37,172 nucleotides of DNA, from assembly GCA_964589485.1 (NCBI GenBank), contig CAZPRK010000009.1, forward strand, positions 1-37,172, given 5' to 3'. Shown in pieces: positions 1 to 18,601 of this stretch. How positions within the stretch are numbered: position 1 is the first letter of the stretch; every line of letters starts with the position of its first letter. This DNA is from an uncultured Methanosarcinales archaeon. Lineage in GTDB: Archaea > Nanobdellota > Nanobdellia > Woesearchaeales > CAYSVS01. The notes under the pieces are model-generated. The model did no database searches, was not told the DNA's origin, and was given only the letters and a program-made list of their open reading frames with translations. Both the position numbers and the translations under genes were made by a program.

Positions 1-3000
1 ATGCCTTGTGAATGGATTAATGCAACTGAACGTTGTGGTCCAAGACTTGATAGAATATTCGAAGATGGAAAAGAGAATTTAATCACTATAGATAATCAAA
101 AAAGTTGTGAATATGCAGGTGGAAAATGGATTACTGAAAATTATTGTGAAGGTGCAATTTCAGTTCCAACAGGAAGATGTGAAGCTAAATTTGATGAAGA
201 AAGAAATTGTAATAAAGCATGTTATGCATGTGAATATAAATCAGATGGAACTAACTGGAGTAGTTCTGCAGATGCTAAAGAAGCATGTATTGAATCTAAA
301 TTAGGATATTGTGAATTTGTTGCAAATTCAGATTCATTTAATGGTTATGGTAATTGTAATGTAAAGGATGAATTTATTACAGGAATTGCAGGAAATTGTG
401 ATGCTGATTGTGGTTCATGTAGTCATAAAGGAGATCCTACTGCTTCAGATGATAACAATAAACCTTCTTATTTTTGTAGAAATAGTGATGCAGGATGTAA
501 ATGGATTCCTGATTTAGATAATCCTAATGATGAAGCGAGAGGAAGATGTGCTTCAAATTCTGAAAAAACTTGTTCAGATAGATGTGATAAGTGTGATACA
601 GAAACTCAATGTAGTCAATATGGTCAAAAGAAAGGAAATACTAGTTTAGAGAAACAATGTAATTGGGATTCAACAGCAATTGTAAAATGTCAACCAAAGA
701 ATGGTGCAGATGAATTAGAGATTTGTTGGGATGGACAAGATAATAATAATGATGGTAAAATGGATTGTGCAGATTCTATGTGTTTTTCAGATCCTTTTTG
801 TGGAGGAACTACTGGAACAGGAGCTGCTTGTTTTACTGCAGATACAGAAGTAGTATGTAAAAATACATTAACTACTGATTCAAATAATTGTACTTGGGTT
901 AATGAATCTTGGGGAAGTTGGTGTGATATTCCTGGAAGTGATTGTTGGAATCATGATGGAACTAATGAAACTTTTTGTGAATCAAAAGGATGTTCATGGC
1001 ATTCTAACTTTGGTGGATTTTGTGAAGAAGACTGGGAAGCTAATGACTTTAGTAGTTGCTTTAGTTCAAATATTACAACATGTGGTGGAAATTGTACATG
1101 GGTTGTAGATAATTGGTGTCAAGAATCTGGAGGATGGTGTGAAGGTAAAACTGGATACTCAGGAAGTGAATTTCAGAATTGTTGGCAGTATGATGATAAT
1201 GGTGAATCTACATGTAATGCAGCAACTGATTTAAATGGAGAACAATTATGTCAATGGCAACAAGATTCTTGGTGTAGCACACAAGGTAGTAATGCAGGAT
1301 GGTGTGATCATAAAAAGTTCACATGTTGGCAATATAGCCATAATCAAACTGCATGTACTAATTCAAGTAATACTGATTGGTGTCAATGGAGAAGTGACGA
1401 ATGGGGAAGTTGGTGTGAATCAAAAACATCAGGGTCAACATCTTGTTGGAGTCAAAGTAATAATGCTTCTTGTGTAACTGCAGGATGTAATTGGATAACT
1501 GGATTATGTGATCCTCCTGGGTTTGGTGGTCACACGTTTGGTGGATATAGTGGAAATGGTAGTTTTTCAGGTACAGGTAATAGTTGTTGGAAATTTGATG
1601 GAAATTTAACTGGTTGTAATAATCAAAGTGGGTGTTCATTTTTTACAGAGAATAAACCATTTTGTAATGTTGAAAAAAATAATAATTGTAATCAATATAA
1701 CAGCGTAGCAGCTGGATGTAATACAACTAATGGATGTTTCTTTAGTAACGAAAGTGGAAACGCATGGTGTTCAAGTATTAAAGAACAATGTTGGAATAAT
1801 GTAACTTTAACAAATAATCAAACTTTATGTAATGCAAATTCCCATTGTAATTGGACAATTAGTAATGAAGGTTGGGAAGGTTGTGAACCTACTTGTTTTG
1901 CATCTCAAACAGAAGGAGAATGTGGAAGTGGATGTAATTGGGTTAGCGGTTGGTGTAGTTCCGGAACTGTTAGTGAGTTTTTCGATGATATGGAAGGAGG
2001 AGCACCAATTGAATTAGGACGTGATGCTGAAGGAGATGCATCTCCAAATGAAATAGATATATTAGGTTTTGGAATGAAAGATATGGGCGATGCATTTGGA
2101 TTTGGAATAGGTGTAAAGGATTTAACAAATGCATCTTTATGTAATGGAAAAAAGATTGGATTTGGTACTAATGCTCAATCGGGAACAGGTAAAAATACTA
2201 CTAAGTTCTTCTGGTATTTTGATACAGATGGAACTAGGACAGGAAATTGTGCTTTATCTCATAATTCATCTGCAAAAGGGTTTGAATTTTATGCTACTGC
2301 TGTATATAAATGGAGTACAACTGCAAATAGTCTTAGTGAACAATATACTGTTTACAGATGTACTAGTGGAAACTGGTCAGTTGTAGATATTAAAGCTAGC
2401 GGATTTCCTCAAAAATCTTGTTCAGAGATTGGTGGCGGTATGATTGCAATTGAGAAAAATGATTTTGAAAGATTCCCTACACTTTATACTGTAGGGACAG
2501 ACATGAGAGTCACAGTAGCTACAGCCAATGCAGTAGGAAATATTACAAGTCCTACAGATACTGCAAGTTCAGGATTTGCAACTCCAGGAGCTGTAGATTT
2601 TGATTTAGATTCACTTGACTTTTTCAAGTTAAGTAGTTCTAATGTTCAGGCTAAAAGTTTAGATAATGCTAATAAAGGGTATGTGTCATATTCAGCAGAT
2701 TGTTGGACTGCTTCAGGATGTTCAGATTATTCATGTTATAATCATCCATATTGTGTTTCAAATTCATATGGAGTTCACGCTTCTGGTTTTGAAGACACGA
2801 GAACACCTAAAGTAATTGCAATATCAAAAGAAATGTATCCAAATAGTTCTTTAATAAGTTATTTTACAGACAAGCCAGCAAACGGAAGTTTATTGTTTTA
2901 TCATAATGATAGTACTTGTTCAACTCTTAACTATACTGTAAATGATGAAGCATTAAGTAGCTTAGAAAGAAGAAATTATAGTTTATTACATTTTGCAGAA

Positions 3001-4287
3001 ATATTTAATGATAATGGTGTAACTTCGTTAAATTATGATTTGAAGTCAAATACCAAATACTATTTTAAAATAAAAGTTTGTGATGATGGCAATAAATGTG
3101 GAATAAGTAAATGTTCATCTTTTGTGACTGAATCTCAAAGTAGTTGTGCTTATTGTGACTTTGTAACAAAGTTAAATGCCCCAGCTGGTTGGAATGTAAG
3201 TTATGATTTAGACAGTGATTTAACTTATGAACATGTTCAAGGTGAAGTTTGTGGGAAAAGTGCAGGAATGAAAACCAACTATACTGATGGAAGAAGTGCA
3301 AACATTAAACTTTATAAAAATGATAATAGTACTTGGTTTGAATTTCATAATGTAAGAATAACTAAAACAGGAATGAGCAGTAGAATGAGCTCTATAAGTG
3401 ATGACACTGATTTACCAACAGGAACTACGACTGATGTGGGAGGAAATACAGTTGGATATGCAGGAATGTTAACTAGTACAAGAGATAAAGTAGTTAATAA
3501 CTTATTCCCTGAACAATGTTACATTAAAATACCGGGAACTGGGTCATGTACTGAGTTATGGCATTGTAAAAGTGACTTGACAACTTGTGTTGACAGAACA
3601 TCAGAAGCAATTTTGAATCAAACTGGTTCTGATTATTGTATATGGCAAATTCCTTTCTGTGACTTTTCAGCTTGGGCTGGAGGTCAACCTCAGTCAGGAT
3701 CTTCATCTTCTTCATCGTCTTCGTCTTCAGGTGGAGGCGGAGGAGGCGGCGGTGGCGGCGTTTCAGGTGGTGGTGGAAAGAAAGCTACAGAAGTTACTGT
3801 TTCATCTGCTTTGAAGACATATAGTATGAAGGCTGGAGATTTAATTCAGTTTAAAATTGAAAACGAAAATCACACTATTAAGTTAAAATCAACTTCAGGA
3901 AATAAAATAGTATTACAGTTTGCATCAACTCCATTTGATGTTTCTTTTAATGATGGAGAAACAAAAAATATAGATCTTGATAAAGATAATGTGTTTGATA
4001 TTCAAGTAGGTGTTAAGAAAAAATCTTTTAGTGAGATTGATTTAAACATAAAATTATTACCTAAACCTAGCTGTTCAGATGGAGTTAAAAATCAGAACGA
4101 AGAAGAGATAGATTGTGGCGGAGTTTGTAATAGTTGTGAGGTTGAAGTAGCAGAAGTTACTCCAATAGATCAAGAAAGTGTAGAAGAAGAAAAAGAAGAA
4201 ATTGTTGAAGAGTCTAATAATTATGTTTTAATTGGATTGGTTGCAATTTTATTATTATTTGCTATTATTTTCTTTAAGAACAATTAA
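1..4287 (+). CDS. Large Cys/Trp-rich cell-surface protein with C-terminal membrane anchor (probably 5'-truncated by the window edge)
   Basis: 1428-aa ORF open from base 1 with no signal peptide at the visible N-terminus. Many C-x-W/W-C repeats, a CWDGQDNNNDGKMDC motif, an FN3-like LKSNTKYYFKIKVCD segment, a Ser/Gly linker, a CSDGVKNQNEEEIDCGGVCNSC module, an acidic spacer and a terminal hydrophobic helix. Many N-x-S/T sequons. Confidence 0.8.
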   Translation: MPCEWINATERCGPRLDRIFEDGKENLITIDNQKSCEYAGGKWITENYCEGAISVPTGRCEAKFDEERNCNKACYACEYKSDGTNWSSSADAKEACIESKLGYCEFVANSDSFNGYGNCNVKDEFITGIAGNCDADCGSCSHKGDPTASDDNNKPSYFCRNSDAGCKWIPDLDNPNDEARGRCASNSEKTCSDRCDKCDTETQCSQYGQKKGNTSLEKQCNWDSTAIVKCQPKNGADELEICWDGQDNNNDGKMDCADSMCFSDPFCGGTTGTGAACFTADTEVVCKNTLTTDSNNCTWVNESWGSWCDIPGSDCWNHDGTNETFCESKGCSWHSNFGGFCEEDWEANDFSSCFSSNITTCGGNCTWVVDNWCQESGGWCEGKTGYSGSEFQNCWQYDDNGESTCNAATDLNGEQLCQWQQDSWCSTQGSNAGWCDHKKFTCWQYSHNQTACTNSSNTDWCQWRSDEWGSWCESKTSGSTSCWSQSNNASCVTAGCNWITGLCDPPGFGGHTFGGYSGNGSFSGTGNSCWKFDGNLTGCNNQSGCSFFTENKPFCNVEKNNNCNQYNSVAAGCNTTNGCFFSNESGNAWCSSIKEQCWNNVTLTNNQTLCNANSHCNWTISNEGWEGCEPTCFASQTEGECGSGCNWVSGWCSSGTVSEFFDDMEGGAPIELGRDAEGDASPNEIDILGFGMKDMGDAFGFGIGVKDLTNASLCNGKKIGFGTNAQSGTGKNTTKFFWYFDTDGTRTGNCALSHNSSAKGFEFYATAVYKWSTTANSLSEQYTVYRCTSGNWSVVDIKASGFPQKSCSEIGGGMIAIEKNDFERFPTLYTVGTDMRVTVATANAVGNITSPTDTASSGFATPGAVDFDLDSLDFFKLSSSNVQAKSLDNANKGYVSYSADCWTASGCSDYSCYNHPYCVSNSYGVHASGFEDTRTPKVIAISKEMYPNSSLISYFTDKPANGSLLFYHNDSTCSTLNYTVNDEALSSLERRNYSLLHFAEIFNDNGVTSLNYDLKSNTKYYFKIKVCDDGNKCGISKCSSFVTESQSSCAYCDFVTKLNAPAGWNVSYDLDSDLTYEHVQGEVCGKSAGMKTNYTDGRSANIKLYKNDNSTWFEFHNVRITKTGMSSRMSSISDDTDLPTGTTTDVGGNTVGYAGMLTSTRDKVVNNLFPEQCYIKIPGTGSCTELWHCKSDLTTCVDRTSEAILNQTGSDYCIWQIPFCDFSAWAGGQPQSGSSSSSSSSSSGGGGGGGGGGVSGGGGKKATEVTVSSALKTYSMKAGDLIQFKIENENHTIKLKSTSGNKIVLQFASTPFDVSFNDGETKNIDLDKDNVFDIQVGVKKKSFSEIDLNIKLLPKPSCSDGVKNQNEEEIDCGGVCNSCEVEVAEVTPIDQESVEEEKEEIVEESNNYVLIGLVAILLLFAIIFFKNN
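3700..3777 (+). repeat. Low-complexity (TCN)n(GGN)n tract encoding a poly-Ser/poly-Gly linker
   Basis: tcttcatcttcttcatcgtcttcgtcttca followed by ggtggaggcggaggaggcggcggtggcggc..., translating to SSSSSSSSSSGGGGGGGGGGVSGGGG. Confidence 0.9.
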
Positions 4288-5247
4288 AGCTTTATTGAAA
4301 GGGGTTTCTAAATCATATTTAATTTCATTTATGGTATGTTCATATAAAGGATCATAATATTTTTCAAGCATTGTAATTGTAAATTGTTCATATTCTTTAT
4401 TGTTAATATTACTTCTTAATTCTTCAATTACTTTATTAGATAATTTTTGTTTAAGTTTAGGTAAAATTTCTATAATGTAATCTAAATCTTTTTTTGTTAT
4501 ATTAGAAAAATATTCTTTTATGATTCTTTTTGCTCTATCTTTTAATGGACAAGTTATTTTAATTTTTTTACTTTTTTTCATTTTTTGCCATAAAAATTCA
4601 GGCATTTCAACTTTTCCGATTTTTCTTGATTCACCTTCAATAAATATATTTTTTTTATTTTCTAATTCTTTTAATTTATCGAATAATATTGCATCAAACA
4701 TTTTTTGACTTCTTGGTTTAAGACCAATTTTACCTAAAAGAGAGCTTCTATGTTGTGCAATGTCTTCAAGGTCTATTGTATCTTCTAATTCATGTAACAG
4801 TTCAGTTTTTCCTGCACCTGTAAGGCCATATAATACTGTTAATTTTGGCTTAAAATTAATACTCTTAAAGTAGTTTAGAACATAATTTCTATATGCTTTA
4901 TGCCCACCTTCTAGTTGTTTTACATAAAACCCTAGTGCATCTAAAAAATTAACAATAACTTTACTTCTCATTCCACCACGCCAACAATAAATTAAAAGTT
5001 TTTTATTTTTAAATTTAAAATAATCTTCCATCATTGTTGGCATTTTTTTAGAAAAAATATTAATACCTTCTTTAATTGCAATATTTTTACCTTCTTGTTT
5101 ATACAAAGTTCCTACTATTGCTCTTTCTTCATTTGTAAATAGAGGAATGTTTATAGCTTTAGGGATATGCGCTTCTTTAAATTCAGCAGGAGTTCTAGTA
5201 TCAATTATTATAAAATTTTCAGATTTAATTAATTCTTCGACTTTCAT
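4255..5247 (-). CDS. selU: tRNA 2-selenouridine synthase (rhodanese + P-loop, SelU/MnmH/YbbB)
   Basis: N-terminal rhodanese (IDTRTPAEF, HIPKAINIPL, VGTLYKQ, YCWRGGMRS), P-loop GLTGAGKT, DLEDIAQHRSS, EGESRKIG and YYDPLY motifs. Confidence 0.92.
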   Translation of the reverse strand: MKVEELIKSENFIIIDTRTPAEFKEAHIPKAINIPLFTNEERAIVGTLYKQEGKNIAIKEGINIFSKKMPTMMEDYFKFKNKKLLIYCWRGGMRSKVIVNFLDALGFYVKQLEGGHKAYRNYVLNYFKSINFKPKLTVLYGLTGAGKTELLHELEDTIDLEDIAQHRSSLLGKIGLKPRSQKMFDAILFDKLKELENKKNIFIEGESRKIGKVEMPEFLWQKMKKSKKIKITCPLKDRAKRIIKEYFSNITKKDLDYIIEILPKLKQKLSNKVIEELRSNINNKEYEQFTITMLEKYYDPLYEHTINEIKYDLETPFNKALIVLKENNSK

Positions 5248-9560: not shown

Positions 9561-11267
9561 TTATTTTATTATTTTTCTACCAATTGAAGTAATTTTTATA
9601 CATTTAACTCTTCCTTTTAATTCAATATTAATTAATCCTAATGCTTGTAACCTTTTAACTTTAGTTCTAGTTGTTGGTTTTGTTATATTAAATTTATTAG
9701 TAATATCTTTAAATGAAATTATTTTATTCATGTTATTATTAATATTAACAAGATTAAGAATTTCAAGTTCCATTTCACTTAAATTTACGTTATTAGATAA
9801 ATGTTTTCCATAAAGGTCTATTGCCTCTGAGTTAATTAATGAAAACTCTTCATCTTTTGTAATTGAAGTATTGATGGATAATATTATGATACAATTATTT
9901 TGTGAAATTAAATCTTTAAGTGAATGAATTGTACTTTTCATGTCATCAAAAGTATTTTGTGTAAAAAGATAGTTTAAATTTTCAATTAAAATTACACTTT
10001 TTTCACTTTTTAGGATAAACTCTTTAATTAATTCAATTAAAGTATTTATATTTGTTTCTGAAGGAGTATCTGTATTATTTTTACTTAACCAAATAAAACT
10101 AGTTTCTTTAAGATTATATTTTTCTTTAACTTTATTTGGATCTTCTCTTATTATTCCTAATCCTGCATATCCTTTATTTAATGCACTTATGAAAATATCA
10201 AAACAATTATTATCATCTTCTTCTTTAATTAAATACATTTTTTGGTTTTCTAATTTGATGTCAGAAGTAGTAAATTTATTTTTTTCTAATCCTATCTTAA
10301 TTCCTAATTTATTAAGCTTCTCTTGTACTTCTTCCTTGGATTTATGGACTTTTACTAATATTATAAATATTGAAATTATGCCTATTAATACAAAGCCTAA
10401 ACTATAGAAATGCCTTTTTTTAAGTTTCTTAATTTCATTTGAATGATTTTTTAACGGAGAAAAGACATATAAAGTCCATTTATCTCCACTTAAAAATAAA
10501 TCTGACGAAGTTTGTATTGTTTGTCCATAATCTAGGAAACTAGAAGTATGTAAATTTTTATTTGATATTTTTGTTTTGATATCATCAAATTCAGGAAAAT
10601 TATTACTTTTTAGTATTGTTTCTTTTGTTTCTGAATTAATTAAAATAAATTTATTATTAGAAGTGTCAAAGAATTTATGAAAATATAAATTTTTTAATAA
10701 ATCTAATTCTATTATACTTAATAAAACTCCTTTAAATTCACCCTTAAAGTTAGGATATGGTGTATATTCTGTTGTTTCATATAATGGAACAGAAACAAAT
10801 ATTTGTTTTTTATCGCCTTGTATTATTACTTCGCTAATAAAAGGTTCATTTGATTCTTTAGGATTAATAAAGTAATTTTTATTTTTTATATTTAGTTGTA
10901 AAAAATTAGAATATTCTTGTGAACTACATTCTGTAATGTCTCCTTTATCATTTACTCTAAGGATTGCTTGACTTTTTGTTTTTGTTTTTTCATGTATTTG
11001 TTTTAAGTTTCCATCACAACCTTTCAAATCTTCGGTTAATGGGAATTTAGTTAAAGTTATTAATCCATTTTTAACTTGAGTTACATGGTTTTCGAATTGT
11101 TTTGCTGCAAATTCGGTTTCAGTTAGTTGGCTTTTTTCAACTTGATCATATATGGTAATTTGTACTTGTGAAAAAGAAAGAATGTTGAAAAATATTATAA
11201 TTGCTATGCTTAAAAGAAAAATTAATGCGTAAATTAAGACTTTATGATTTCCAATTTTATCCTTCAT
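9561..11267 (-). CDS. Membrane-anchored one-component regulator: TM - extracellular Cache domain - TM - DUF835 - winged HTH
   Basis: Two TM helices flank a Cache-like region (KNYF..P..SNEPFISE, IFVSVPL, GEFKGVL, WTLYV). DUF835-like segment (GLGIIREDP, FIWLS, VILIENLNYL, LKDLISQNNCIIILSI). C-terminal wHTH (ITKPTTRTKVKRLQALGLI..KGRVK..ITSIG). Confidence 0.75.
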   Translation of the reverse strand: MKDKIGNHKVLIYALIFLLSIAIIIFFNILSFSQVQITIYDQVEKSQLTETEFAAKQFENHVTQVKNGLITLTKFPLTEDLKGCDGNLKQIHEKTKTKSQAILRVNDKGDITECSSQEYSNFLQLNIKNKNYFINPKESNEPFISEVIIQGDKKQIFVSVPLYETTEYTPYPNFKGEFKGVLLSIIELDLLKNLYFHKFFDTSNNKFILINSETKETILKSNNFPEFDDIKTKISNKNLHTSSFLDYGQTIQTSSDLFLSGDKWTLYVFSPLKNHSNEIKKLKKRHFYSLGFVLIGIISIFIILVKVHKSKEEVQEKLNKLGIKIGLEKNKFTTSDIKLENQKMYLIKEEDDNNCFDIFISALNKGYAGLGIIREDPNKVKEKYNLKETSFIWLSKNNTDTPSETNINTLIELIKEFILKSEKSVILIENLNYLFTQNTFDDMKSTIHSLKDLISQNNCIIILSINTSITKDEEFSLINSEAIDLYGKHLSNNVNLSEMELEILNLVNINNNMNKIISFKDITNKFNITKPTTRTKVKRLQALGLINIELKGRVKCIKITSIGRKIIK

Positions 11268-11288
11268 ATTTTATTTTTATTTGGTGAT

Positions 11289-11338
11289 TTTATAAAATTT
11301 TCCCTATTTTTTCCCTATTTTTTCGATTTATTTAAATA
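11289..11338. promoter_or_regulatory. Divergent promoter pair with tandem 11-bp direct repeats (candidate operator)
   Basis: TTTATAAA (11289-11296, ~22 nt from ATG 11267 minus) and TTTAAATA (11331-11338, plus) bracket TTTCCCTATTT x2 (11299-11309, 11310-11320) and a degenerate third unit. Confidence 0.55.
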
Positions 11339-11385
11339 CTAGGCGGATTTATTTGGTGTATACTCAAAAAACGGGGGAAGTTTAA

Positions 11386-12333
11386 ATGAACGATACAAAT
11401 GATATTGAAAAAAAAGGGGAAAGTCATTCTGGAATTAATAAAGAAGAAAATATTTCTAATGAAGTAATAGAAGAAACTAATAATCATAAAGAATTTGATA
11501 ATAAGGTTGAAATTTCTGAAAAGAAACATGAGCATAAAGAAAATGTAGAAGAAAAACTTACTCATGAAGAAGTTAAAAAGCCTGAAGTTGAAGTTTCTGA
11601 AAAGAAACATGAAGGAAGTAGCTTTAAAACAAAAAATATACATGCGAAACCAACTTATTTAAATAATCAACTTTCAATTATGATGGTGTTAGCAGCTGTG
11701 TTTATTTTATTAAATCAAATGCAAATAAATGCTTTATCTGATTCTTTATCTGGGAATTTAGGTTCTTCAGGTCATAGGCAAAGTGATTTGAGTAATATTG
11801 ATTTATCTCAATTAAAATCAACAGGGCATACTCTTGCTGCAGTTTATCCAATTGAGGATATAAAAAATGCAGAAGATGCAATGGCGATAATGTTTCCTAC
11901 AGGAAAACCTGATTATGGTGATGCTTTAGGTGTAACTTTTGATGATCCAGTAAATTCATTACAAACTTTAAATGACATGTATAGAGGATTAAAAGCTGAA
12001 GTTGAAAAGAAAGATCCTGATGCGTTTGCTAGATTTATTAATTTGGCTTCAAATCCTTATGGAGTTTCTTGTGAATATTGTTGCGGAATAGGACCTATTG
12101 GTTCAGACAAACAAGGAAATTCAAGGTGTGGATGTGCACATAATCCAGGAGTATTATCGGTAGCATTATATTTATCTGCTTATACGGATTATACAGATGG
12201 AGAAATTTTAAGAGAAGCAATGAGATGGAAAACATTATGGTTTCCAAAAAATATGATTGAGCTAGGAGCTAGCTTAGCAGGAGGAGATACTTCTGCATTA
12301 AAAGATTTACCAGGAATGGTAGGGGGGTGCTAG
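11386..12333 (+). CDS. Single-pass membrane protein with CEYCC...CGCAH cluster and C-terminal KDLPGMVGGC tail
   Basis: Acidic/His N-terminus, one TM helix (LSIMMVLAAVFILL), SCEYCCG...RCGCAH, ends in MVGGC-stop. GGGGG SD-like site upstream. Confidence 0.8.
   Translation: MNDTNDIEKKGESHSGINKEENISNEVIEETNNHKEFDNKVEISEKKHEHKENVEEKLTHEEVKKPEVEVSEKKHEGSSFKTKNIHAKPTYLNNQLSIMMVLAAVFILLNQMQINALSDSLSGNLGSSGHRQSDLSNIDLSQLKSTGHTLAAVYPIEDIKNAEDAMAIMFPTGKPDYGDALGVTFDDPVNSLQTLNDMYRGLKAEVEKKDPDAFARFINLASNPYGVSCEYCCGIGPIGSDKQGNSRCGCAHNPGVLSVALYLSAYTDYTDGEILREAMRWKTLWFPKNMIELGASLAGGDTSALKDLPGMVGGC
11506..11612 (+). repeat. 26-bp intragenic direct repeat (VE[I/V]SEKKHE twice)
   Basis: GTTGAAATTTCTGAAAAGAAACATGA (11506-11531) vs GTTGAAGTTTCTGAAAAGAAACATGA (11587-11612), 25/26 identical. 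Confidence 0.85.
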
Positions 12334-12336
12334 AAT

Positions 12337-12486
12337 ATGTATGAAATGTTAAAAACTTTATTTTTAGCAAAAAGGTATTTGTTGTTAGTTAGTATTATTG
12401 TTGTAGGACTTTTTTTAGTTGGGTGTAGCACTCAAGCAGGAAGTCCGCCACCATCTGGACCAATTGGCGGAGGGTGTGGAGGTTGA
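12337..12486 (+). CDS. Small lipoprotein-like peptide (49 aa) ending in GGGCGG; absent from the ORF track
   Basis: MYEMLKTLFLAKRYLLLVSIIVVGLFLVGCSTQAGSPPPSGPIGGGCGG*. Basic n-region, hydrophobic h-region, lipobox LVG|C. Starts 3 nt after the previous stop, and its TGA overlaps the next TTG start. Confidence 0.78.
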   Translation: MYEMLKTLFLAKRYLLLVSIIVVGLFLVGCSTQAGSPPPSGPIGGGCGG

Positions 12487-12866
12487 ATTACTCAAGTCAC
12501 ATTGAAAGAGAGCAAAGATTTGAACAACATAAACTTGAAAAAAAGAAAAAAAATCAAAAAATAATTGGAGTTTGTGTTGGGATTTTTTTGTTAATCTTAT
12601 CTGGGTTTGCTTATGTTAACTTATCACCTGGTAAATATGATGGGTTTGCTAAGTGTCTTACAGAAAAAGGAGTAGTTATGTATGGAGAGGATTGGTGTCC
12701 TTATACAAACGCTCAAAAAGGAATGTTTGGTAAGTCTTTCAAACATATTAACTATGTTGTTAAATCAGATCTTAAATTAAGACCAACTTGGGAAGTAGAT
12801 GGAGAAAGTTACGAAACAGTACAATCATTTCAAAGATTATCGGCTTTAACCGGTTGTAAATATTAG
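12483..12866 (+). CDS. Membrane-anchored thioredoxin-like protein with CxxT (WCPYT) site
   Basis: TM helix, then FAKCLTEKGVVMYGEDWCPYTNAQKGMFG...PTW...LTGC, resembling the VKOR-associated Trx-like domain. TTG 12483 chosen for GGAGG at 12469-12473 and the TTGA overlap. Confidence 0.75.
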   Translation: MNYSSHIEREQRFEQHKLEKKKKNQKIIGVCVGIFLLILSGFAYVNLSPGKYDGFAKCLTEKGVVMYGEDWCPYTNAQKGMFGKSFKHINYVVKSDLKLRPTWEVDGESYETVQSFQRLSALTGCKY

Positions 12867-12878
12867 GAGGAAATTAAA

Positions 12879-13103
12879 ATGGAAAAACCAACAGTTATTG
12901 CACTAGTATTAGGTGTATTAATAGTATTGTCAGCAGTACAAGCATTTCAATTAAATGCATTACAAGATAAATTAGAGGATGAAGATTTAACAGTTAAGTC
13001 TAGTCATTCTTCATCATCTGTAGCATCAAGCGGTGAGAGAAAAGCTCCATCTGCAGTTCCAGCAAGTATTAAAGACTTACCAACAATGGTCGGTGGATGT
13101 TAA
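12879..13103 (+). CDS. Small exported/anchored protein with Ser-rich linker and C-terminal KDLPTMVGGC tail
   Basis: Strong SD (AGGAGG), N-terminal hydrophobic helix, short coiled segment, low-complexity linker, MVGGC-stop. Confidence 0.85.
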   Translation: MEKPTVIALVLGVLIVLSAVQAFQLNALQDKLEDEDLTVKSSHSSSSVASSGERKAPSAVPASIKDLPTMVGGC

Positions 13104-13125: not shown

Positions 13126-14247
13126 ATGAAACATTATGGGAAAAAAGAATATACTAAATTGTATACTATTATGATTGTAGTTTTGGTTGCATTTACGGCA
13201 ATAAACTTAATTCAAAGTAGTAGTTTACAAGGGAAGTTAGTTGATAAGTTAGCTGAAATGAAGGAATTAAGTAGACCAGCTGAATTGGAATTAACTATCA
13301 TTAATTCAAATTGTAATGATTGTTTTGATATTTCTAGTATCGTAGATCAAGTTAAAAGTGGAAATGTAAATATTACAAATGAACTTAGTTTAAGTGCAGT
13401 AGAAGCTCAAGATTTAATTACTAAATATAACATAGAGAAATTGCCTTCATTAATTGTTAAAGGTGAACTTGAAAAAGTTCAATTAAGTAATTTTGATGAA
13501 AGTGAAGATGTATTATTATTTAGTCAACAACTTCCTCCTTTTGTAAATGTAAAAACAGGGAGTGTAGTAGGAAGAGTTACTGCAATTACAATTAGAGAAG
13601 AATCATGTGAAAAATGTTCAGATGTATCACAAATTTTAGCTGCAATGAAACAATCTCACATTAATATCATTTCTGAAAGAGTTATAGACTCTGATTCAAA
13701 AGAAGCTAGAAGTTTAATTACAAAATATGGAATAAGTAAATTACCAACTCTTGTTTTGTCTAGTGATATTAGAGCTTATAATAATGAAGTAACTCAAGCA
13801 CTTCCAGAGATTGGTGTCTTTGCTAATGATGGATCTTTTGTTACAAGAGAAGCAAATCCACCTTATTATGATTTGGCTACAAATAGTGTAAGAGGTTTAG
13901 TTGATTTAACTATTTTGAAAAGTTCAAGTTGTACTAACTGTTATGATGCAGAATCATTTCATGGTCCGATTATAGCAAGGTTAGGTATAGCATTGTCTGA
14001 TGTTAAAAAAGTAGATGTGAATTCAGCAGAAGGAAAAGAGTTAGTTAGTAAGTATAACGTTGTTGAAATACCAACAATTTTACTTAACGGAGATACTGAC
14101 TCTTATTCTCATTTACCTCAAATATGGGCAAATGTTGGAACTATTGAGCCAGATAAAACTTTTGTTTTTAGAAAAGTAAAAGAAATTACAAGACAAACTT
14201 ACTTTGATCTAAAACAAAATAAAGTTATTGAAGGTGGTCAACAATGA
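13126..14247 (+). CDS. Membrane-anchored protein with three tandem thioredoxin-fold CxxC domains
   Basis: CNDC...ITKYNIEKLPSLIV, CEKC...ITKYGISKLPTLVL and CTNC...VSKYNVVEIPTILL. N-terminal TM helix. GGAGG SD. Confidence 0.8.
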   Translation: MKHYGKKEYTKLYTIMIVVLVAFTAINLIQSSSLQGKLVDKLAEMKELSRPAELELTIINSNCNDCFDISSIVDQVKSGNVNITNELSLSAVEAQDLITKYNIEKLPSLIVKGELEKVQLSNFDESEDVLLFSQQLPPFVNVKTGSVVGRVTAITIREESCEKCSDVSQILAAMKQSHINIISERVIDSDSKEARSLITKYGISKLPTLVLSSDIRAYNNEVTQALPEIGVFANDGSFVTREANPPYYDLATNSVRGLVDLTILKSSSCTNCYDAESFHGPIIARLGIALSDVKKVDVNSAEGKELVSKYNVVEIPTILLNGDTDSYSHLPQIWANVGTIEPDKTFVFRKVKEITRQTYFDLKQNKVIEGGQQ

Positions 14248-14573
14248 AAAGGTTGTTTATCTTTTCTTTTTTTATTTTAATGTTATCAAATTTTGTAACT
14301 GCTCATGGAAGTGAAGGTGGTTACTTTAGTTTAATTGATATAGAACTTTATTTAGTATTTATTTTGGCAATATTTGCAGCGTTTTATGCATTTAAGAAAA
14401 GTAGTTATTTAGGAATTACTGCTTTATCTTTTGGATTAATTTTTTTGTTGAAAATACTTATTGATGTTTTTAGGTTATTTTATGTTCCTGAAGATGCATT
14501 GTTACATATTACACAAATATTTGGAATTATTGCATTGGTTAATTTAATATTGGGAGTAAAAGAATTGAAATGA
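14244..14573 (+). CDS. Small membrane protein (signal peptide ending A|HG plus 3 TM helices)
   Basis: Hydrophobic 109-aa ORF with ATGA overlaps at both ends. Confidence 0.7.
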   Translation: MKRLFIFSFFILMLSNFVTAHGSEGGYFSLIDIELYLVFILAIFAAFYAFKKSSYLGITALSFGLIFLLKILIDVFRLFYVPEDALLHITQIFGIIALVNLILGVKELK

Positions 14574-15166
14574 AAAAACTACTTTTAATTTTATTTGGAA
14601 GTGGAATTTTGTTAAGTTTAATAGCTTTTTTTATTACAAGTTCATCAAATGTTGTTGGTGATAAAGAAATACTTGCAGAAATTGAAAGGGTTAGTAACTT
14701 ACCTTATAAGGTAGTTTCTTATGATAGTGTAACTCCTGCTGATTTGAAAAAATTATCTGAATTAAGTGCTAAAGATGAAATTGCTAAAAGTCTGATTGAT
14801 GAAGCTGTTTGGCTTTCATCAAATGATGAACACGAACATGTTGGTCATTCATTATATTATTTAGGTGAATACGTAAAAAAAGCAGAAGATGTTTTTTGTT
14901 TACCTCATGAATTAGAACATATTCAAATTTATTTAGAACATGATGCAATTGAGTTAGCTGAAAAACAAATTAGGATTGCTACAAAATATCAAAAAGATTG
15001 GTATGCTTCAACTGAAAGGAAATATAATAAATTTCCTCAATATTTTCCTAAGTATAGCGAATTGATATCAGCTACAAATAAAGCTTTAGAAAATTTAAAT
15101 AAAGGAGATTACGGAAAAGAAACAATGGAATTTATTGGTTTTTCCATTTATTATTCGATATGTTGA
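14570..15166 (+). CDS. Exported helical protein with His clusters (HEHVGH, CLPHELEH)
   Basis: N-terminal signal/anchor, His/Glu clusters, C-terminal Cys. Translationally coupled within the operon. Confidence 0.7.
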   Translation: MKKLLLILFGSGILLSLIAFFITSSSNVVGDKEILAEIERVSNLPYKVVSYDSVTPADLKKLSELSAKDEIAKSLIDEAVWLSSNDEHEHVGHSLYYLGEYVKKAEDVFCLPHELEHIQIYLEHDAIELAEKQIRIATKYQKDWYASTERKYNKFPQYFPKYSELISATNKALENLNKGDYGKETMEFIGFSIYYSIC

Positions 15167-16131
15167 AAATGAACAAAACAATTATATTAACATTGTTAGG
15201 AATGCTTTTGATTAGTGTAACTTATGTGGAAGCATCAGAAAATTTACCTATTGGTTTGCAGAAAATTATTGATTATAATAATGAACAAACTGCAGATTTT
15301 GCTTTAAAAATATCTTTTTTAATTGCATTTGTAGCTGGAATGTTGGGAATACTCTCCCCGTGTATTCTTCCATTTCTTCCAGCTTACTTTTCTTTAACAT
15401 TTAAAGAGAAAAAAAATGTGACTAAAATGACATTTATATTCTTTTTAGGATTTTCTTTTACTTTTGTATTTATGGGTGTTGTTGCAGGTTTTATCGGAGA
15501 GCATACATTATCGGTTTTACAAACTGGTTGGTTAGTTAGTATAGCCGGTGTATTTATGGTTTTAATGGGAATTATTGTATTAAAAGGTCAAAAAATGTGT
15601 AATTATGTTAATATAAAAACTTTAAATAAATATGGCGATGATACAATTGGAACTTTTTTATTTGGATTATTTTTTGCTCTTGGATGGACTGCATGCCTTG
15701 GTCCAATTTTAGGAGGGATATTAGGAATAGGAGCTATAATGGGTAATATTTGGAAAAGTGCATTACTTTTATTTTTCTACTCTCTTGGAAATTTAATTCC
15801 ATTATTTATTTTAAGTATTTTTTATGATAAATTTAAATTATCTGAAACAAAATTAATTAAAGGAAAAATGTTAAGTTTTAATTTTTTAGAAGATACTTAT
15901 CATATACATAGTACTAATTTAATATCTGGATTATTGTTTATTATATTAGGAATAACTGTTGTAATTTTTAATGGAACAAGAGTTTTTAATACGTGGGATT
16001 TTTTAGGAACTAAAGATTACTTTTACTCAATACAAGATGTTTTGATTAATTCGGGTTATGCAAATTATATAGGAATAGCAGCTTTTATTTTATTAGGTAT
16101 ATTATTTTATTGGTACAAATCACGATCGTAG
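15160..16131 (+). CDS. ccdA: CcdA/DsbD-beta family transmembrane thiol-disulfide transporter
   Basis: AGMLGILSPCILPFLPAY and LGWTACLGPILGGIL catalytic Cys motifs, YSLG..IP, multiple TM helices. Confidence 0.9.
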   Translation: MLKMNKTIILTLLGMLLISVTYVEASENLPIGLQKIIDYNNEQTADFALKISFLIAFVAGMLGILSPCILPFLPAYFSLTFKEKKNVTKMTFIFFLGFSFTFVFMGVVAGFIGEHTLSVLQTGWLVSIAGVFMVLMGIIVLKGQKMCNYVNIKTLNKYGDDTIGTFLFGLFFALGWTACLGPILGGILGIGAIMGNIWKSALLLFFYSLGNLIPLFILSIFYDKFKLSETKLIKGKMLSFNFLEDTYHIHSTNLISGLLFIILGITVVIFNGTRVFNTWDFLGTKDYFYSIQDVLINSGYANYIGIAAFILLGILFYWYKSRS

Positions 16132-16186
16132 CTGGCAATTTGAAAAATATACGTCCCCGTTGTATATTATCAAATTGTCAGTCTAC
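16128..16186 (+). other. Long imperfect inverted repeat (stem-loop) filling the ccdA / DUF255-ccdA intergenic gap
   Basis: GTAG-CTGGCAATTTGAAAAATATAC, loop GTCCCCGTT, GTATATTATCAAATTGTCAGTCTAC. About 22 pairable positions with small bulges. Confidence 0.65.
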
Positions 16187-16198
16187 TATATTTTAAAA

Positions 16199-18601
16199 AT
16201 GAAAAGGATAACTTTATTTATAATATTTTCTCTTTTTCTAGTTACATTTGTATCTGGTGAGTATACAAAAGAAACTTCTGAAGAGTTAGAACATTTAATT
16301 AATTGGCAGGAATATACTCCTAAAACTTTTCAAAAAGCCTTATCTGAAAAAAAACCAATTTATTTAGTGGTGTCTGCTCCTTCATGGTGTTATTGGTGTC
16401 ACGTTTATGAAAGTGAAGATTATTTGTATAATTCTGTTTTATATCCATACATAAATGAAAATTTTATTCCCGTTTTAGTTGATTCTGATAAAAGACCTGA
16501 TTTAACTAGGAAGTATTTAGAAGGGGGATGGCCGTCTACAACTATATTAGCTCCAAATATGCAAAGAATAAACGGATTTACTGGTCCAAGAGATCCAAAA
16601 GGTTTACAAGAATATCTTGAAAGCCTAATTATTTATTTAGTTGATAAAGACTTTTCTTTATTTGAAAATTCAATTGAATATAGTAAAATTGATGTTGTTT
16701 TACCTTCGGAAAATAATGATTTAAGAAAAAAATATCTTGACTTAGTTAAAAAAAATTATGATACTTTTTATGGTGGTTTTGGTTTAGGTAATGCTCCTAA
16801 ATGGAGGGAAGGACAAAAATTTCCAAGACCATTAACTTTGAAACTTTTTATGGAAGAATATGAAAAATCAGGTGATGAAATTTATTATGACATGGTATTA
16901 AAAACATTTGAAAATCAATTTACTAGTGATTTAGAAAATTATAAACTTTATGATCCTGTAGAAGGTGGGTTTCATAGATATTCTACAAAAAGGGATTGGA
17001 CAATTCCACATTATGAAAAAATGTTATATGATCAAGCTAAATTGATTAGTGTTTATTCTAAATTAGATGTTGCTGAATTAGTTGTAAACAAAAGTCTTGA
17101 TTTTATTTTTTCTAAATTTTATGATTCTGATGGAGGATTTTATTCTAGTCAAGATGCGCATTTGGAAAGTGAATACTTTGGTGAAAAAAATAGATCTGAA
17201 TTAGAGCAACCATTTATAGATAAAACAAGAAAAATAAATGATAATGCGTTAATGATAATTACTTTAATTGAGTTAGGTTATAATGAAGAAGCAAAAAAAA
17301 GTTTAGATTTTATTAAGAATAACATGTTGAGCGATGGTTTATTTTATTACTATGATCATGAATTAAAAAAACCATTTCTTGATGGACAAAGTTTATCCAA
17401 TTCATATGGATTATTGGCTTTTATTTCTGCATATGAAAAATATGGTGAATATTTAGATGAATCTAAACAAATAGCAGATTATTCTTTAGATAATTTGTAT
17501 GATTGGAACAGTGCAGGATTTTTTGAAAGGAATAGTAAAAACATTAATTTTTATGCATTAAATGAAAGAATTAGTTTAAATAGGAATTATGAAGAAAACG
17601 CAGTTTTTGTTTATGGTTTGATTAAGTTATATTTATCTACTAATGATGATAAATATTTAGATCCGTCTTTGAAAACTTTAGGTTACTTAGTTCAAAATTT
17701 TCAATTTAGTGATGAAAGTTATTACGTTATTAAATCTTTAGAGTTAGTTAATGAAAATAATTTAATTAATAAACATAAAACTTTTAGCAGAGATAATTTT
17801 TGGTTAAATGATTTATTGGATGTAAAAAGTAATACTATTTCTTTAGATGATGCTCCATTGTTAAAACCAGAATTTGCTGATGTTAGTACTGTTATTTTAA
17901 TATTAGTTTCTTTTTTAGTTGGCTTGCTAAGTTTTTTATCTCCTTGTACTTTACCTATTCTTCCTGTATATTTTGCAGTTAATATTAATTCAAAAAAATC
18001 TATAAAAGATACTTTATTGTTTGTTATAGGTGTAGCCTTAATTTTTAGTTTATTTGGAATGGGTGCTGGATTTGTTGGAAGTTATTTGAAAGATTATAGA
18101 AGCATAGTAACAAAAATAGCTGGTTTATTGATTATATTATTTGGAATTTTAGAATTAAAAGGTAAAGGGTTTTCTGGGTTTAAGATAAATAAAAAAATTG
18201 AAAATAGCTTTTTATTAGGTTTAACCTTTGGAATTGGTTGGAGTGCTTGTATTGGTCCAATATTAGCTTCTTTCCTTTTATTAGCAAGTACAAGTGGAAC
18301 TATCTTTAAAGGAACTTTATTGTTATTTATTTATGCATTAGGGTTATGTTTACCTTTAATTTTAATATCTCCATTTTTTGATAAGTTTAAGAAAACTAAG
18401 TATTGGGAGTATCTTAAAGGAAGAGAAATATATGGAATGCATTCTACTTACTTGATTTCTGGTTTGATTTTAATTATATTAGGTATATTGATTTATTTTG
18501 ATTTCTTGTTTAGTTTAAATGAATATGCTTTACAAAGTGAATATGTTCAGAAAGTAATAATTACTGGAGAAGAATTTTTAAAAAAAGTATTTTTAAGATA
18601 G
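16199..18601 (+). CDS. Exported DUF255/YyaL (thioredoxin + alpha/alpha barrel) protein fused to a C-terminal CcdA domain
   Basis: Signal peptide from ATG 16199. WCYWCHV, DKRPDL, GGWPST, KFP, GGFHRYS, IPHYEKMLYDQA and GGFYSSQDA, then LSPCTLPILP and GWSACIGPILA. Confidence 0.88.
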   Translation: MKRITLFIIFSLFLVTFVSGEYTKETSEELEHLINWQEYTPKTFQKALSEKKPIYLVVSAPSWCYWCHVYESEDYLYNSVLYPYINENFIPVLVDSDKRPDLTRKYLEGGWPSTTILAPNMQRINGFTGPRDPKGLQEYLESLIIYLVDKDFSLFENSIEYSKIDVVLPSENNDLRKKYLDLVKKNYDTFYGGFGLGNAPKWREGQKFPRPLTLKLFMEEYEKSGDEIYYDMVLKTFENQFTSDLENYKLYDPVEGGFHRYSTKRDWTIPHYEKMLYDQAKLISVYSKLDVAELVVNKSLDFIFSKFYDSDGGFYSSQDAHLESEYFGEKNRSELEQPFIDKTRKINDNALMIITLIELGYNEEAKKSLDFIKNNMLSDGLFYYYDHELKKPFLDGQSLSNSYGLLAFISAYEKYGEYLDESKQIADYSLDNLYDWNSAGFFERNSKNINFYALNERISLNRNYEENAVFVYGLIKLYLSTNDDKYLDPSLKTLGYLVQNFQFSDESYYVIKSLELVNENNLINKHKTFSRDNFWLNDLLDVKSNTISLDDAPLLKPEFADVSTVILILVSFLVGLLSFLSPCTLPILPVYFAVNINSKKSIKDTLLFVIGVALIFSLFGMGAGFVGSYLKDYRSIVTKIAGLLIILFGILELKGKGFSGFKINKKIENSFLLGLTFGIGWSACIGPILASFLLLASTSGTIFKGTLLLFIYALGLCLPLILISPFFDKFKKTKYWEYLKGREIYGMHSTYLISGLILIILGILIYFDFLFSLNEYALQSEYVQKVIITGEEFLKKVFLR

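Follow-up and report, generated by a model that had tools for sequence, protein, structure and literature searches.

A conserved cysteine-ended C-terminal arm on two membrane-anchored proteins of DPANN archaea, and its possible place in a cell-surface thiol module

The stretch of DNA analysed here (the window: 37,172 nucleotides (nt), 27% G+C, contig CAZPRK010000009.1 of an assembly labelled as an uncultured Methanosarcinales archaeon) contains an operon whose first and fourth genes encode otherwise dissimilar proteins that end in the same peptide. Protein A (315 residues; 11386..12333, + strand) terminates in LKDLPGMVGGC and protein B (74 residues; 12879..13103, + strand) in IKDLPTMVGGC. It is proposed, by analogy and at a likelihood a little below an even chance, that this tail is a membrane-tethered swinging arm with a terminal Cys that is kept reduced by thioredoxin-like and CcdA-type proteins, and that A and B are analogues of the sulfur carrier SoxY but not members of its family. 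The basis for this proposal, all computed here, is conservation, covariation, synteny, predicted fold and predicted topology; from these we infer the reactivity of the Cys, its cargo and the identity of its partner.

The common tail was first pointed out in an initial annotation of the window and was read directly from the open reading frames (ORFs). Including the stop codon, the arm occupies 12298..12333 in A and 13068..13103 in B (both + strand), in each case at the very end of the ORF. The codons of the A tail (AAA GAT TTA CCA GGA ATG GTA GGG GGG TGC) and the B tail (AAA GAC TTA CCA ACA ATG GTC GGT GGA TGT) differ at the five synonymous sites that had been reported (GAT/GAC, GTA/GTC, GGG/GGT, GGG/GGA and TGC/TGT). 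Among the 113 six-frame ORFs of 40 or more residues in the window, MVGGC was the sole ending, over either the last five or the last four residues, common to two ORFs.

The tail was then followed through 81 sources, consisting of the window and the best 80 of 300 confirmed genome loci (one genome per species was scanned). By title, nearly all of these 80 loci belong to DPANN archaea (Woesearchaeota, Nanoarchaeia, Micrarchaeia and Iainarchaeum), other titles being “uncultured Methanosarcinales” (∼17), one “bacterium” and one “Patescibacteria”. In the 81 sources, VGGC is the ending of every A gene (83 of 83) and every B gene (75 of 75), and the codons found at these invariant positions include all four for Val, all four for Gly and both for Cys. 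It is thus the peptide that is under selection, as the initial annotation had argued from the window. In total, VGGC ends 160 of the 5633 ORFs of at least 40 residues in the 81 sources: the 83 A genes and, besides these, 77 small ORFs resembling B. No other protein in this set has the ending. The number of MVGGC endings expected from composition among the same 5633 ORFs is 0.0008. One locus (L078, 3201-4098) holds a second A-like/B-like pair in which the tails read GMVGGC and lack LP.

Residues preceding VGGC, numbered from the C-terminus, are also conserved. A tails (n = 83) have Pro at −7 in 81, Gly at −6 in 74 and Met at −5 in 80 (Gln in 3), and B tails (n = 75) have Leu at −8 in 74, Pro at −7 in 73 and Met at −5 in 73 (Gln in 2). 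Position −6 separates the two proteins: in B it varies among Gln, Ser, Thr and Lys (Gln in 27, Ser in 22 and Thr in 11), with Gly in 4 of 75 tails as against 74 of 83 in A. Both A and B have one Cys in their last 12 residues.

A sequence search with protein A returned 378 relatives; among the 120 matches listed, 119 end in MVGGC and one in MVGVC. More distant relatives were obtained with a profile of A against 1.84 billion cluster representatives, which gave 279 matches at E ≤ 1e-3, and the best 150 (to 86 bits) were classified. The strict tail was present in 104, with Met (79), Gln (24) or Ile (1) at −5, and a further 15 had a variant that still ends in Cys (MVGSC, MVGDC, MRGGC, QEGGC and similar). 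The rest comprised 4 with the tail and a few extra residues, 15 C-terminally truncated fragments that are uninformative, and 12 in which the C-terminal region is present and the tail is not, several of the latter having the look of frameshifted or incomplete gene calls. Homologues with variable termini or without the Cys, the pattern that the initial annotation had named as evidence against its reading, was thus looked for, and the distant homologues instead keep the terminus and the Cys. A single-sequence search with B yielded three proteins; given that this search was limited by its word index, the spread of B was taken from the loci.

In 75 cases, a small ORF of ∼65-100 residues ending in LPx[M/Q]VGGC lies downstream of A, with a median gap of 24 nt and a gap of no more than 150 nt in 59 of the pairs. 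Six of the A genes without B lie no more than about 620 nt from the end of their contig, and L043 is the only B-less A locus with more than 5 kb of downstream sequence. A 159-residue, Cys-rich protein anchored by a transmembrane (TM) helix is encoded in L043 (13243-13722, − strand) and ends in ILPQMVGGCQGSGNGC, i.e. the tail plus seven residues with a second terminal Cys. The conservation of the A-B pair across DPANN lineages agrees with the earlier view that the shared tail did not arise by recent copying of DNA.

The residue at −5 is matched within pairs: 73 pairs are Met/Met, 2 are Gln/Gln (L050 and L079) and none is mixed (Fisher p = 3.6e-4). Given that the two Gln/Gln genomes are far apart on the A tree (their most recent common ancestor spans 70 of 83 leaves), the switch occurred at least twice, each time in both genes. 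Such a matched change is what would be expected of two tails that fit one pocket, and points to a recognition site shared by A and B. Two further arrangements of these genes were observed. In one relative of A (P0069, 335 residues), a single polypeptide runs from A (…LPGIVGGC) through EGGKK into a complete B (…LPQMVGGC); this reflects either the loss of a stop codon or an artefact of sequencing or gene calling, and the A and B genes abut directly there in both cases. In L015, a TM-anchored rhodanese ending in TFGC (10909-11541) lies within the operon and is followed by a second, full-tailed A paralogue (11572-12528).

On sequence comparison, A and B are alike at both ends and unlike in the middle. 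Protein A has a charged N-terminus, one TM helix, a predicted all-α extracytoplasmic domain and the C-terminal arm; the helix and the juxtamembrane motif NQMQINAL (family consensus FNQxQ[IL]) lie at 11674..11736, the motif itself at nt 11713-11736. A GGAGG resembling a ribosome-binding site precedes protein B, which consists of a TM (or signal) helix, the motif VQAFQLNAL (nt 12936-12962), a Ser-rich linker and the arm. A TM helix followed by Q-[IL]-N-A-L had been reported for both, and QINAL in A and QLNAL in B do follow a hydrophobic helix; in addition, FNQxQ[I/L] of A aligns to VQAxQL of B with an hhalign probability of 95% (E 2.9e-8). Asn-110 is invariant and Gln-111 and Gln-113 are at least 90% conserved among 47 aligned A members. 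In a 58-member alignment of B, invariant positions are Leu-67, Val-71, Gly-72, Gly-73 and Cys-74, and those at least 90% conserved are Gln-21, Ala-22, Gln-24, Leu-25, Pro-68 and Met-70. The conserved parts of B are the helix-end motif and the tail only, within a layout of N-terminal helix, VQAxQL, short helix, freely varying Ser/Gly linker and LPSS[I/L]xNLPxMVGGC. The mean number of Lys and Arg residues in A is 3.84 before the TM helix and 1.02 after it (61 of 83 proteins, in which the motif was located), which suggests an N-in/C-out topology.

In the AlphaFold2 model of A, residues 131-300 are all helical, with predicted local distance difference test (pLDDT) values of ∼80-98 per 10-residue block and a dip to 68-79 over residues 221-240. 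By contrast, the last 15 residues are unstructured (pLDDT 51-67). The helical domain contains a Cys/His cluster, CEYCCG-x13-CGCAHNP in the window (12070..12147, + strand), of which Cys-229, Glu-230, Cys-232, Cys-233, Gly-234, Cys-248, Gly-249, Cys-250, His-252, Asn-253 and Pro-254 are invariant in the 47 aligned members. The family form of this cluster, CExCCG…CGCxHNP, provides five Cys and one His and is kept in most of the 150 distant representatives. Inspection by eye found no heme-binding CxxCH in A, the cluster reading CxxCC and CxCxH. A complex prediction for A (residues 88-315) and B scored 0.02 against a mark of 0.32, a result that counts neither way.

A similar glycine-flanked Cys occurs on a third kind of protein. 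Immediately after A, the window encodes a mini-lipoprotein of 49 residues (family C; 12337..12486, + strand) with a signal peptide, the lipobox LVGC (residues 27-30) and 18 further residues ending in GPIGGGCGG. Family C is present in 12 of the 81 sources, where a signal peptide and a lipobox (LVGC, VVGC, IAGC or VAGC) are followed by ∼18 residues ending in GP[I/V]GGGC, GGGCG or GGGCGG; other copies include those of L002 (781-948), L004 (8773-8931), L009 (8698-8817) and L025 (8776-8928). Where A is in view the gene lies just after it, the exceptions being L017 (∼3 kb upstream of A) and L027 (at the start of the locus). The tail thus sits on three kinds of anchor, namely a TM helix with a domain (A), a TM helix with a linker (B) and a lipobox mini-lipoprotein (C, as GGGC(G)(G)), and in B the linker varies freely and the tail does not. 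The initial suggestion that the tail is the functional unit is strengthened by this distribution. No family in Pfam or NCBIfam was matched by A, B or C; the 47 A members gave only scattered chance matches to family models at E ≤ 1; a search of Protein Data Bank (PDB) sequences with an A profile yielded E 1.4 at best; in a Foldseek comparison of the A model with PDB structures no match reached E ≤ 0.001, the best having E 0.78; and the ESM Atlas returned only “hypothetical protein” clusters of the same family (scores 0.85-0.87).

Genes for thioredoxin-like proteins and a CcdA-type transporter accompany A in most sources. To survey the neighbourhoods, the neighbour genes of the 81 sources were clustered, giving 52 clusters present in at least three sources (two of them A and B themselves), and the representatives of 42 clusters were scanned against Pfam. 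A TM-anchored protein with three thioredoxin-like domains was found in 64 of 81 sources at a median of 328 nt after A, with three CxxC motifs in nearly all full-length members, and CcdA/DsbD_TM in 62 of 81. In the window, the operon runs on the + strand from 11386 to at least 18601 and is tightly packed, with intergene gaps of 3, −13, 12, 22, −4, −4, −7 and 28 nt. The triple-thioredoxin protein (13126..14247; CNDC, CEKC and CTNC) matches Pfam Thioredoxin_3, Thioredoxin and Glutaredoxin, and the CcdA/DsbD-type transmembrane thiol-disulfide transporter (15160..16131) matches DsbD_TM (E 5.6e-18). Beyond it lies an 813-residue fusion (16160..18601) of a DUF255 thioredoxin-like domain (Thioredox_DsbH, E 6.1e-18), a long middle region and a second DsbD_TM domain (E 4e-15), so the operon has two CcdA-type transporters.

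A further thioredoxin-fold candidate, a single-cysteine, glutaredoxin-like protein with the motif WC[Q/P/K]YT, is encoded in 27 of the 81 sources, usually between A and B. It follows family C in the loci that have it, and CxxC paralogues (YWCPHC) occur in the same loci. The TM-anchored window member (12474..12866, + strand) has the motif WCPYT, ends in LTGCKY and shows a weak NCBIfam glutaredoxin-like match (E 0.01). Its LTGCKY ending is one of several in these loci in which a redox protein bears a glycine-flanked Cys at, or close to, its C-terminus; exported thioredoxin-like proteins (CPWC) in L025 (11860-12333), L058 (4356-4874) and L071 (5348-5836) end in IC[D/N]VTG[G/S]C or VCELSGGCQA.

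The initial annotation had left the tail as either a recognition or modification tag or a reactive arm. Because the tail is confined to A and B, because no TM helix follows it and because thioredoxin-like and CcdA genes are syntenic with it, the evidence leans towards a reactive arm. A swinging arm in particular is suggested by the Gly-Gly neck, the terminal thiol, the co-varying recognition stretch, the predicted disorder and the recurrence on anchor-plus-linker proteins. On this proposal, A and B would be the two constant members of a DPANN cell-surface thiol module. The N-terminal helix ending in [N/Q]xxQ[I/L] would anchor both in the membrane, and both would display the disordered arm L-P-x-[M/Q]-V-G-G-C-COOH outside the cell. 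Within the arm, LPx[M/Q]V may be the stretch recognised by the shared partner and Gly-Gly a thin flexible neck, and the terminal Cys thiol would undergo covalent sulfur chemistry in the cleft of the partner, as a mixed disulfide, a persulfide or another S-linked adduct. The five-Cys/one-His domain of A is the likely reaction centre at which arms would be loaded and unloaded, with B as an arm-only carrier and lipoprotein C, where present, as another. The exported triple-thioredoxin protein and CcdA would bring cytoplasmic electrons out and keep, or reset, the arm thiols in the reduced state, much as SoxS and SoxV/SoxW do for the GGCGG arm of SoxY.

SoxY is described as carrying sulfur intermediates on a Cys within a VTIGGC or carboxy-terminal GGCGG swinging arm (PMC11237559, PMC6067878, PMC5336275). 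SoxS, a periplasmic thioredoxin, reduces false mixed disulfides on SoxYZ, and SoxV, an orthologue of CcdA, reduces SoxW (PMC10451225). The likeness to A and B consists in a glycine-flanked Cys on a flexible, extracytoplasmic arm at the extreme C-terminus and in exported thioredoxin-like proteins and a CcdA-type transporter in the same cluster; the window copy of C, ending in GGGCGG, has the exact GGCGG ending, whereas A and B end in VGGC with no trailing GG. The differences are considerable. No SoxY domain was detected in A, B or C (0 of 47 A members match SoxY at E ≤ 1), and the A model is all-α, whereas the SoxY fold is a β-sandwich. A and B are membrane-tethered rather than soluble, with the Cys as their last residue; none of SoxZ, SoxXA, SoxB and SoxCD turned up around A in the Pfam scans of the 42 cluster representatives; and arm-only proteins like B and C are not described for Sox. 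Membership of A, B or C in the SoxY or DsrC families was rejected for want of a family match, the resemblance to SoxY being one of arm and helpers only.

Other carriers with a mobile C-terminal Cys are more remote. DsrC is described as a sulfur carrier with reactive cysteines in a C-terminal peptide that is handled by a membrane complex, and as a cytoplasmic protein whose two Cys (Cys-103 and Cys-114 in A. fulgidus) hold a trisulfide (PMC10861901). On that description, DsrC/TusE shares with A and B the placing of reactive Cys in a C-terminal arm and differs in that A and B have one arm Cys, are extracytoplasmic and show no sequence relationship in family scans. CcdA/DsbD envelope reductive pathways (ResA/CcmG, ScsBCD and Etrx-Msr) likewise combine a CcdA-type transporter with membrane-anchored thioredoxin-fold proteins in one operon; none described includes A- or B-like proteins or a conserved C-terminal Cys arm. 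Swinging tails are also known from flavoenzymes (the GCUG tail of thioredoxin reductase, the C-terminal Cys pair of MerA and the CGC arm of Erv2), in which a short, flexible, glycine-rich C-terminal peptide moves reactive Cys or Sec from a buried centre to a partner. These tails carry two chalcogens on cytoplasmic or endoplasmic reticulum flavoproteins, whereas A and B have one Cys, no flavin domain and an arm-only form. A and B were also considered as thioredoxin-fold oxidoreductases themselves and rejected, since neither the family scans nor the A model showed a thioredoxin fold with a CxxC or CxxS/T motif; that character belongs to the 13126-14247 protein and, weakly, to the 12474-12866 protein. 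Compared with known cysteine swinging-arm carriers, membrane tethering, arm-only proteins and paired, co-varying arms are unusual.

Several observations weigh against a thiol or sulfur carrier. No Sox, Dsr or other sulfur-oxidation enzyme was seen among the conserved neighbours in the Pfam-scanned cluster representatives. A search for rhodanese across all loci found only those of L015 and L007, both near A, and one unrelated protein of the window; a sulfur-transferase link is without synteny support given this near-absence. The covariation rests on two Gln/Gln genomes. A lone Cys per arm is unable to hold a disulfide by itself, and V-Q-A at the end of the B helix is a possible signal-peptidase site, in which case B may be released rather than tethered. 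Finally, the five-Cys/His cluster could be a metal site instead of a redox site, and the metal genes near A, together with a weak match to MerT, fit a metal relay at least as well.

The membrane domain concerned is polytopic, carries GCPxCG as an invariant intramembrane motif and, in some lineages, forms the N-terminal part of a fusion with A (L074, 7290-8693; L077, 3669-5027). At six further loci it stands alone near A (L078, 12542-13051; L019, 13665-14243; L058, 13286-13735; L044, 12160-12588; L013, 834-1310, − strand; L017, 3129-3590, − strand). Three of eight aligned members have a second CxxC in the loop before A's own helix. A family search on the long A forms found nothing for this N-terminal domain, and Foldseek of its model against the PDB found nothing at E ≤ 0.001. 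The MerT family model matched one of the eight members weakly (E 0.0048) and the other seven not at all. No fused A form longer than 568 residues was found, which is weak evidence, and CcdA was not seen in the 8 kb of locus L074.

Relay of a thiophilic metal is the strongest competitor of the thiol arm, although it is itself rather improbable. Here, the arms would be surface-exposed thiolate ligands for a soft metal such as Cu(I) or Hg(II), those of A and B forming a linear bis-thiolate site; the CExCCG…CGCxH cluster of A would store or transfer the metal, the fused GCPxCG domain would be a MerT-like conduit, and thioredoxin and CcdA would only keep the ligand thiols reduced. Metal genes are indeed enriched within ∼8 kb of A: a copper-type P-type ATPase (CopA with an HMA domain) was found in 12 of 81 sources, the predicted permease ArsP_1 in 8 (some members of this ArsP cluster being small and Cys-rich), ArsR in 7, an HMA-bearing membrane protein in 7, and DUF411 in one, adjoining A in L077. 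The combination of an intramembrane Cys pair with a CxxC near the C-terminal end, seen in the same three of eight aligned domains, resembles MerT and adds to the one weak MerT match; the arm contains both Met and Cys; and the odd number of invariant Cys with one His lies in a lower-confidence loop of the model. Against this, 24 of 104 strict tails, as well as both members of the pair in two genomes, have Gln instead of Met at −5, and given that Gln is a poor soft-metal ligand, Met at this position is more likely a packing residue. Metal genes are also present in at most 15% of loci, compared with ∼78% for thioredoxin/CcdA; family scans found no HMA, CopC, CusF or cupredoxin-like domain in A, B or C; and mer and cop systems are not known to need CcdA.

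It is improbable that A is instead a generator of disulfides, a DPANN counterpart of DsbB, VKOR or Erv. Disulfides would then be formed de novo at the cluster and handed, as oxidising equivalents, by the arms of A and B to thioredoxin-like proteins, which in turn would oxidise exported substrates; the arm would serve as a redox shuttle and not as a carrier in need of reductive upkeep. An all-α domain with CxxC(C), CGC and a flexible Cys tail does echo the CGC arm of Erv2 and the shuttle loop of Ero1, the YWCPHC motif of the glutaredoxin-like paralogues is that of the thioredoxin-like domain fused to bacterial VKOR, and a DsbA-like protein is encoded in 8 of 81 sources. No VKOR or DsbB was seen in the A neighbourhoods among the Pfam-scanned cluster representatives, however, and A was rejected as a member of the DsbB, VKOR, Erv or Ero1 groups because neither Foldseek (nothing at E ≤ 0.001) nor the profile against PDB sequences (E 1.4) related it to these or to any other PDB entry. 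In addition, no flavin or quinone motif is known for A, the conserved membrane partner CcdA exports reducing rather than oxidising equivalents, and many DPANN archaea are anaerobes that lack quinones.

Least probable is a processing, lipidation or sorting tag, in which VGGC-COOH would be cleaved or modified, for example with lipid by an Lgt homologue or by linkage to the envelope as a second anchor: M-V-G-G-C is loosely lipobox-like and recalls the genuine lipoboxes that family C has in these loci, 13 of 81 sources encode an Lgt homologue (PF01790, E 5e-49; e.g. L005, 6871-7632) within a few kb of A, and LPx evokes the sortase motif LPxTG, but the motif is at the very end of the protein in a polar context, with no hydrophobic h-region before it and no TM helix or basic tail after it, Lgt is absent from the 37-kb window, and A and B are each already anchored at the N-terminus. 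Sorting signals such as LPXTG/sortase, PGF-CTERM/archaeosortase and GlyGly-CTERM combine a motif with a TM helix and a basic tail downstream of it, have a cognate enzyme and mark many families, whereas in the 5633 ORFs this tail is borne by A and B alone. Assignment of A and B as C-terminal sorting-signal proteins was rejected, given that the stop codon directly follows the Cys, that NCBIfam, which includes models of known C-terminal sorting signals, gave no match, and that no sortase, archaeosortase or rhombosortase was found among the conserved neighbours in the Pfam-scanned representatives. Nor are A and B bacterial-type lipoproteins (Lgt substrates), VGGC being C-terminal and preceded by polar residues; the lipobox belongs to family C, and the occurrence of Lgt near A fits the bacterial-style lipoboxes of that family.

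A more speculative reading, to which we give a low probability, is that DPANN archaea encode a surface thiol cofactor as protein. B and C would be tethered, arm-only stand-ins for a glutathione-like low-molecular-weight thiol and, with A as the enzyme that loads them or bears the cluster, the glutaredoxin-like protein, the triple-thioredoxin protein and CcdA, would constitute a complete and previously unrecognised extracytoplasmic thiol/persulfide relay. In lineages with the A-GCPxCG fusion, sulfur or reducing equivalents may be relayed from one side of the membrane to the other. Neither the family nor the motif was found described in the openly accessible literature searched. The module has no family name, structure or paper, yet one scan placed it in about 300 species-level genomes. 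DPANN archaea form a large radiation, most of it uncultured, in which genomes are reduced, and genes that they keep nearly universally are likely to matter for a surface-bound, host-dependent life. Were the proposal correct, carrier-arm chemistry so far familiar from sulfur oxidisers would extend to the surface of archaeal cells, B and C would be the first example of arm-only carrier proteins, and the CcdA and thioredoxin genes of organisms without cytochromes c would gain a client. The defined C-terminal peptide offers a simple handle for metaproteomics and biochemistry.

The remaining genes of the operon and its surroundings are less constant. Two overlapping genes at 14244..15166 (+ strand) encode a 109-residue membrane protein and a 198-residue protein, neither with a Pfam or NCBIfam match; their 4-nt overlaps place them in the same operon, and the 198-residue type occurs in 3 sources. 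Divergent from A lies a gene for a DUF835 plus winged-helix protein (9561..11267, − strand; DUF835 E 3.2e-24, MarR_2 weak), a candidate regulator of the operon; DUF835 plus winged-helix regulators recur in 21 of the 81 sources, for the most part upstream of A and on the other strand. Other recurrent neighbours are a BlaI-type repressor (18 of 81), an M48 peptidase (16) and DoxX (12). In 12 loci, a gene pair upstream of A encodes a membrane protein with SWQ[V/I]CHxxCLG and a secreted protein with NTHSV…GHHxSG, neither with a Pfam family (e.g. L025, 1450-2327; L003, 1625-2511; L007, 4442-5331; all − strand), and a related membrane type with ACCLHH is present in L041, L054, L058 and L077.

Archaeal housekeeping genes elsewhere in the window include those for the RNase P Rpr2 subunit, ribosomal protein S3Ae, DUF835 and DUF483. 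A 1428-residue ORF at 1-4287 (+ strand), open at the window start, matched no Pfam family at E ≤ 1e-4. The rhodanese of the window belongs to a 330-residue protein (4255-5247, − strand), 6 kb from the operon and probably unrelated to it, which combines an N-terminal rhodanese domain with a P-loop-like GLTGAGKT and is presumably akin to tRNA 2-selenouridine/geranyl-thiouridine synthase.

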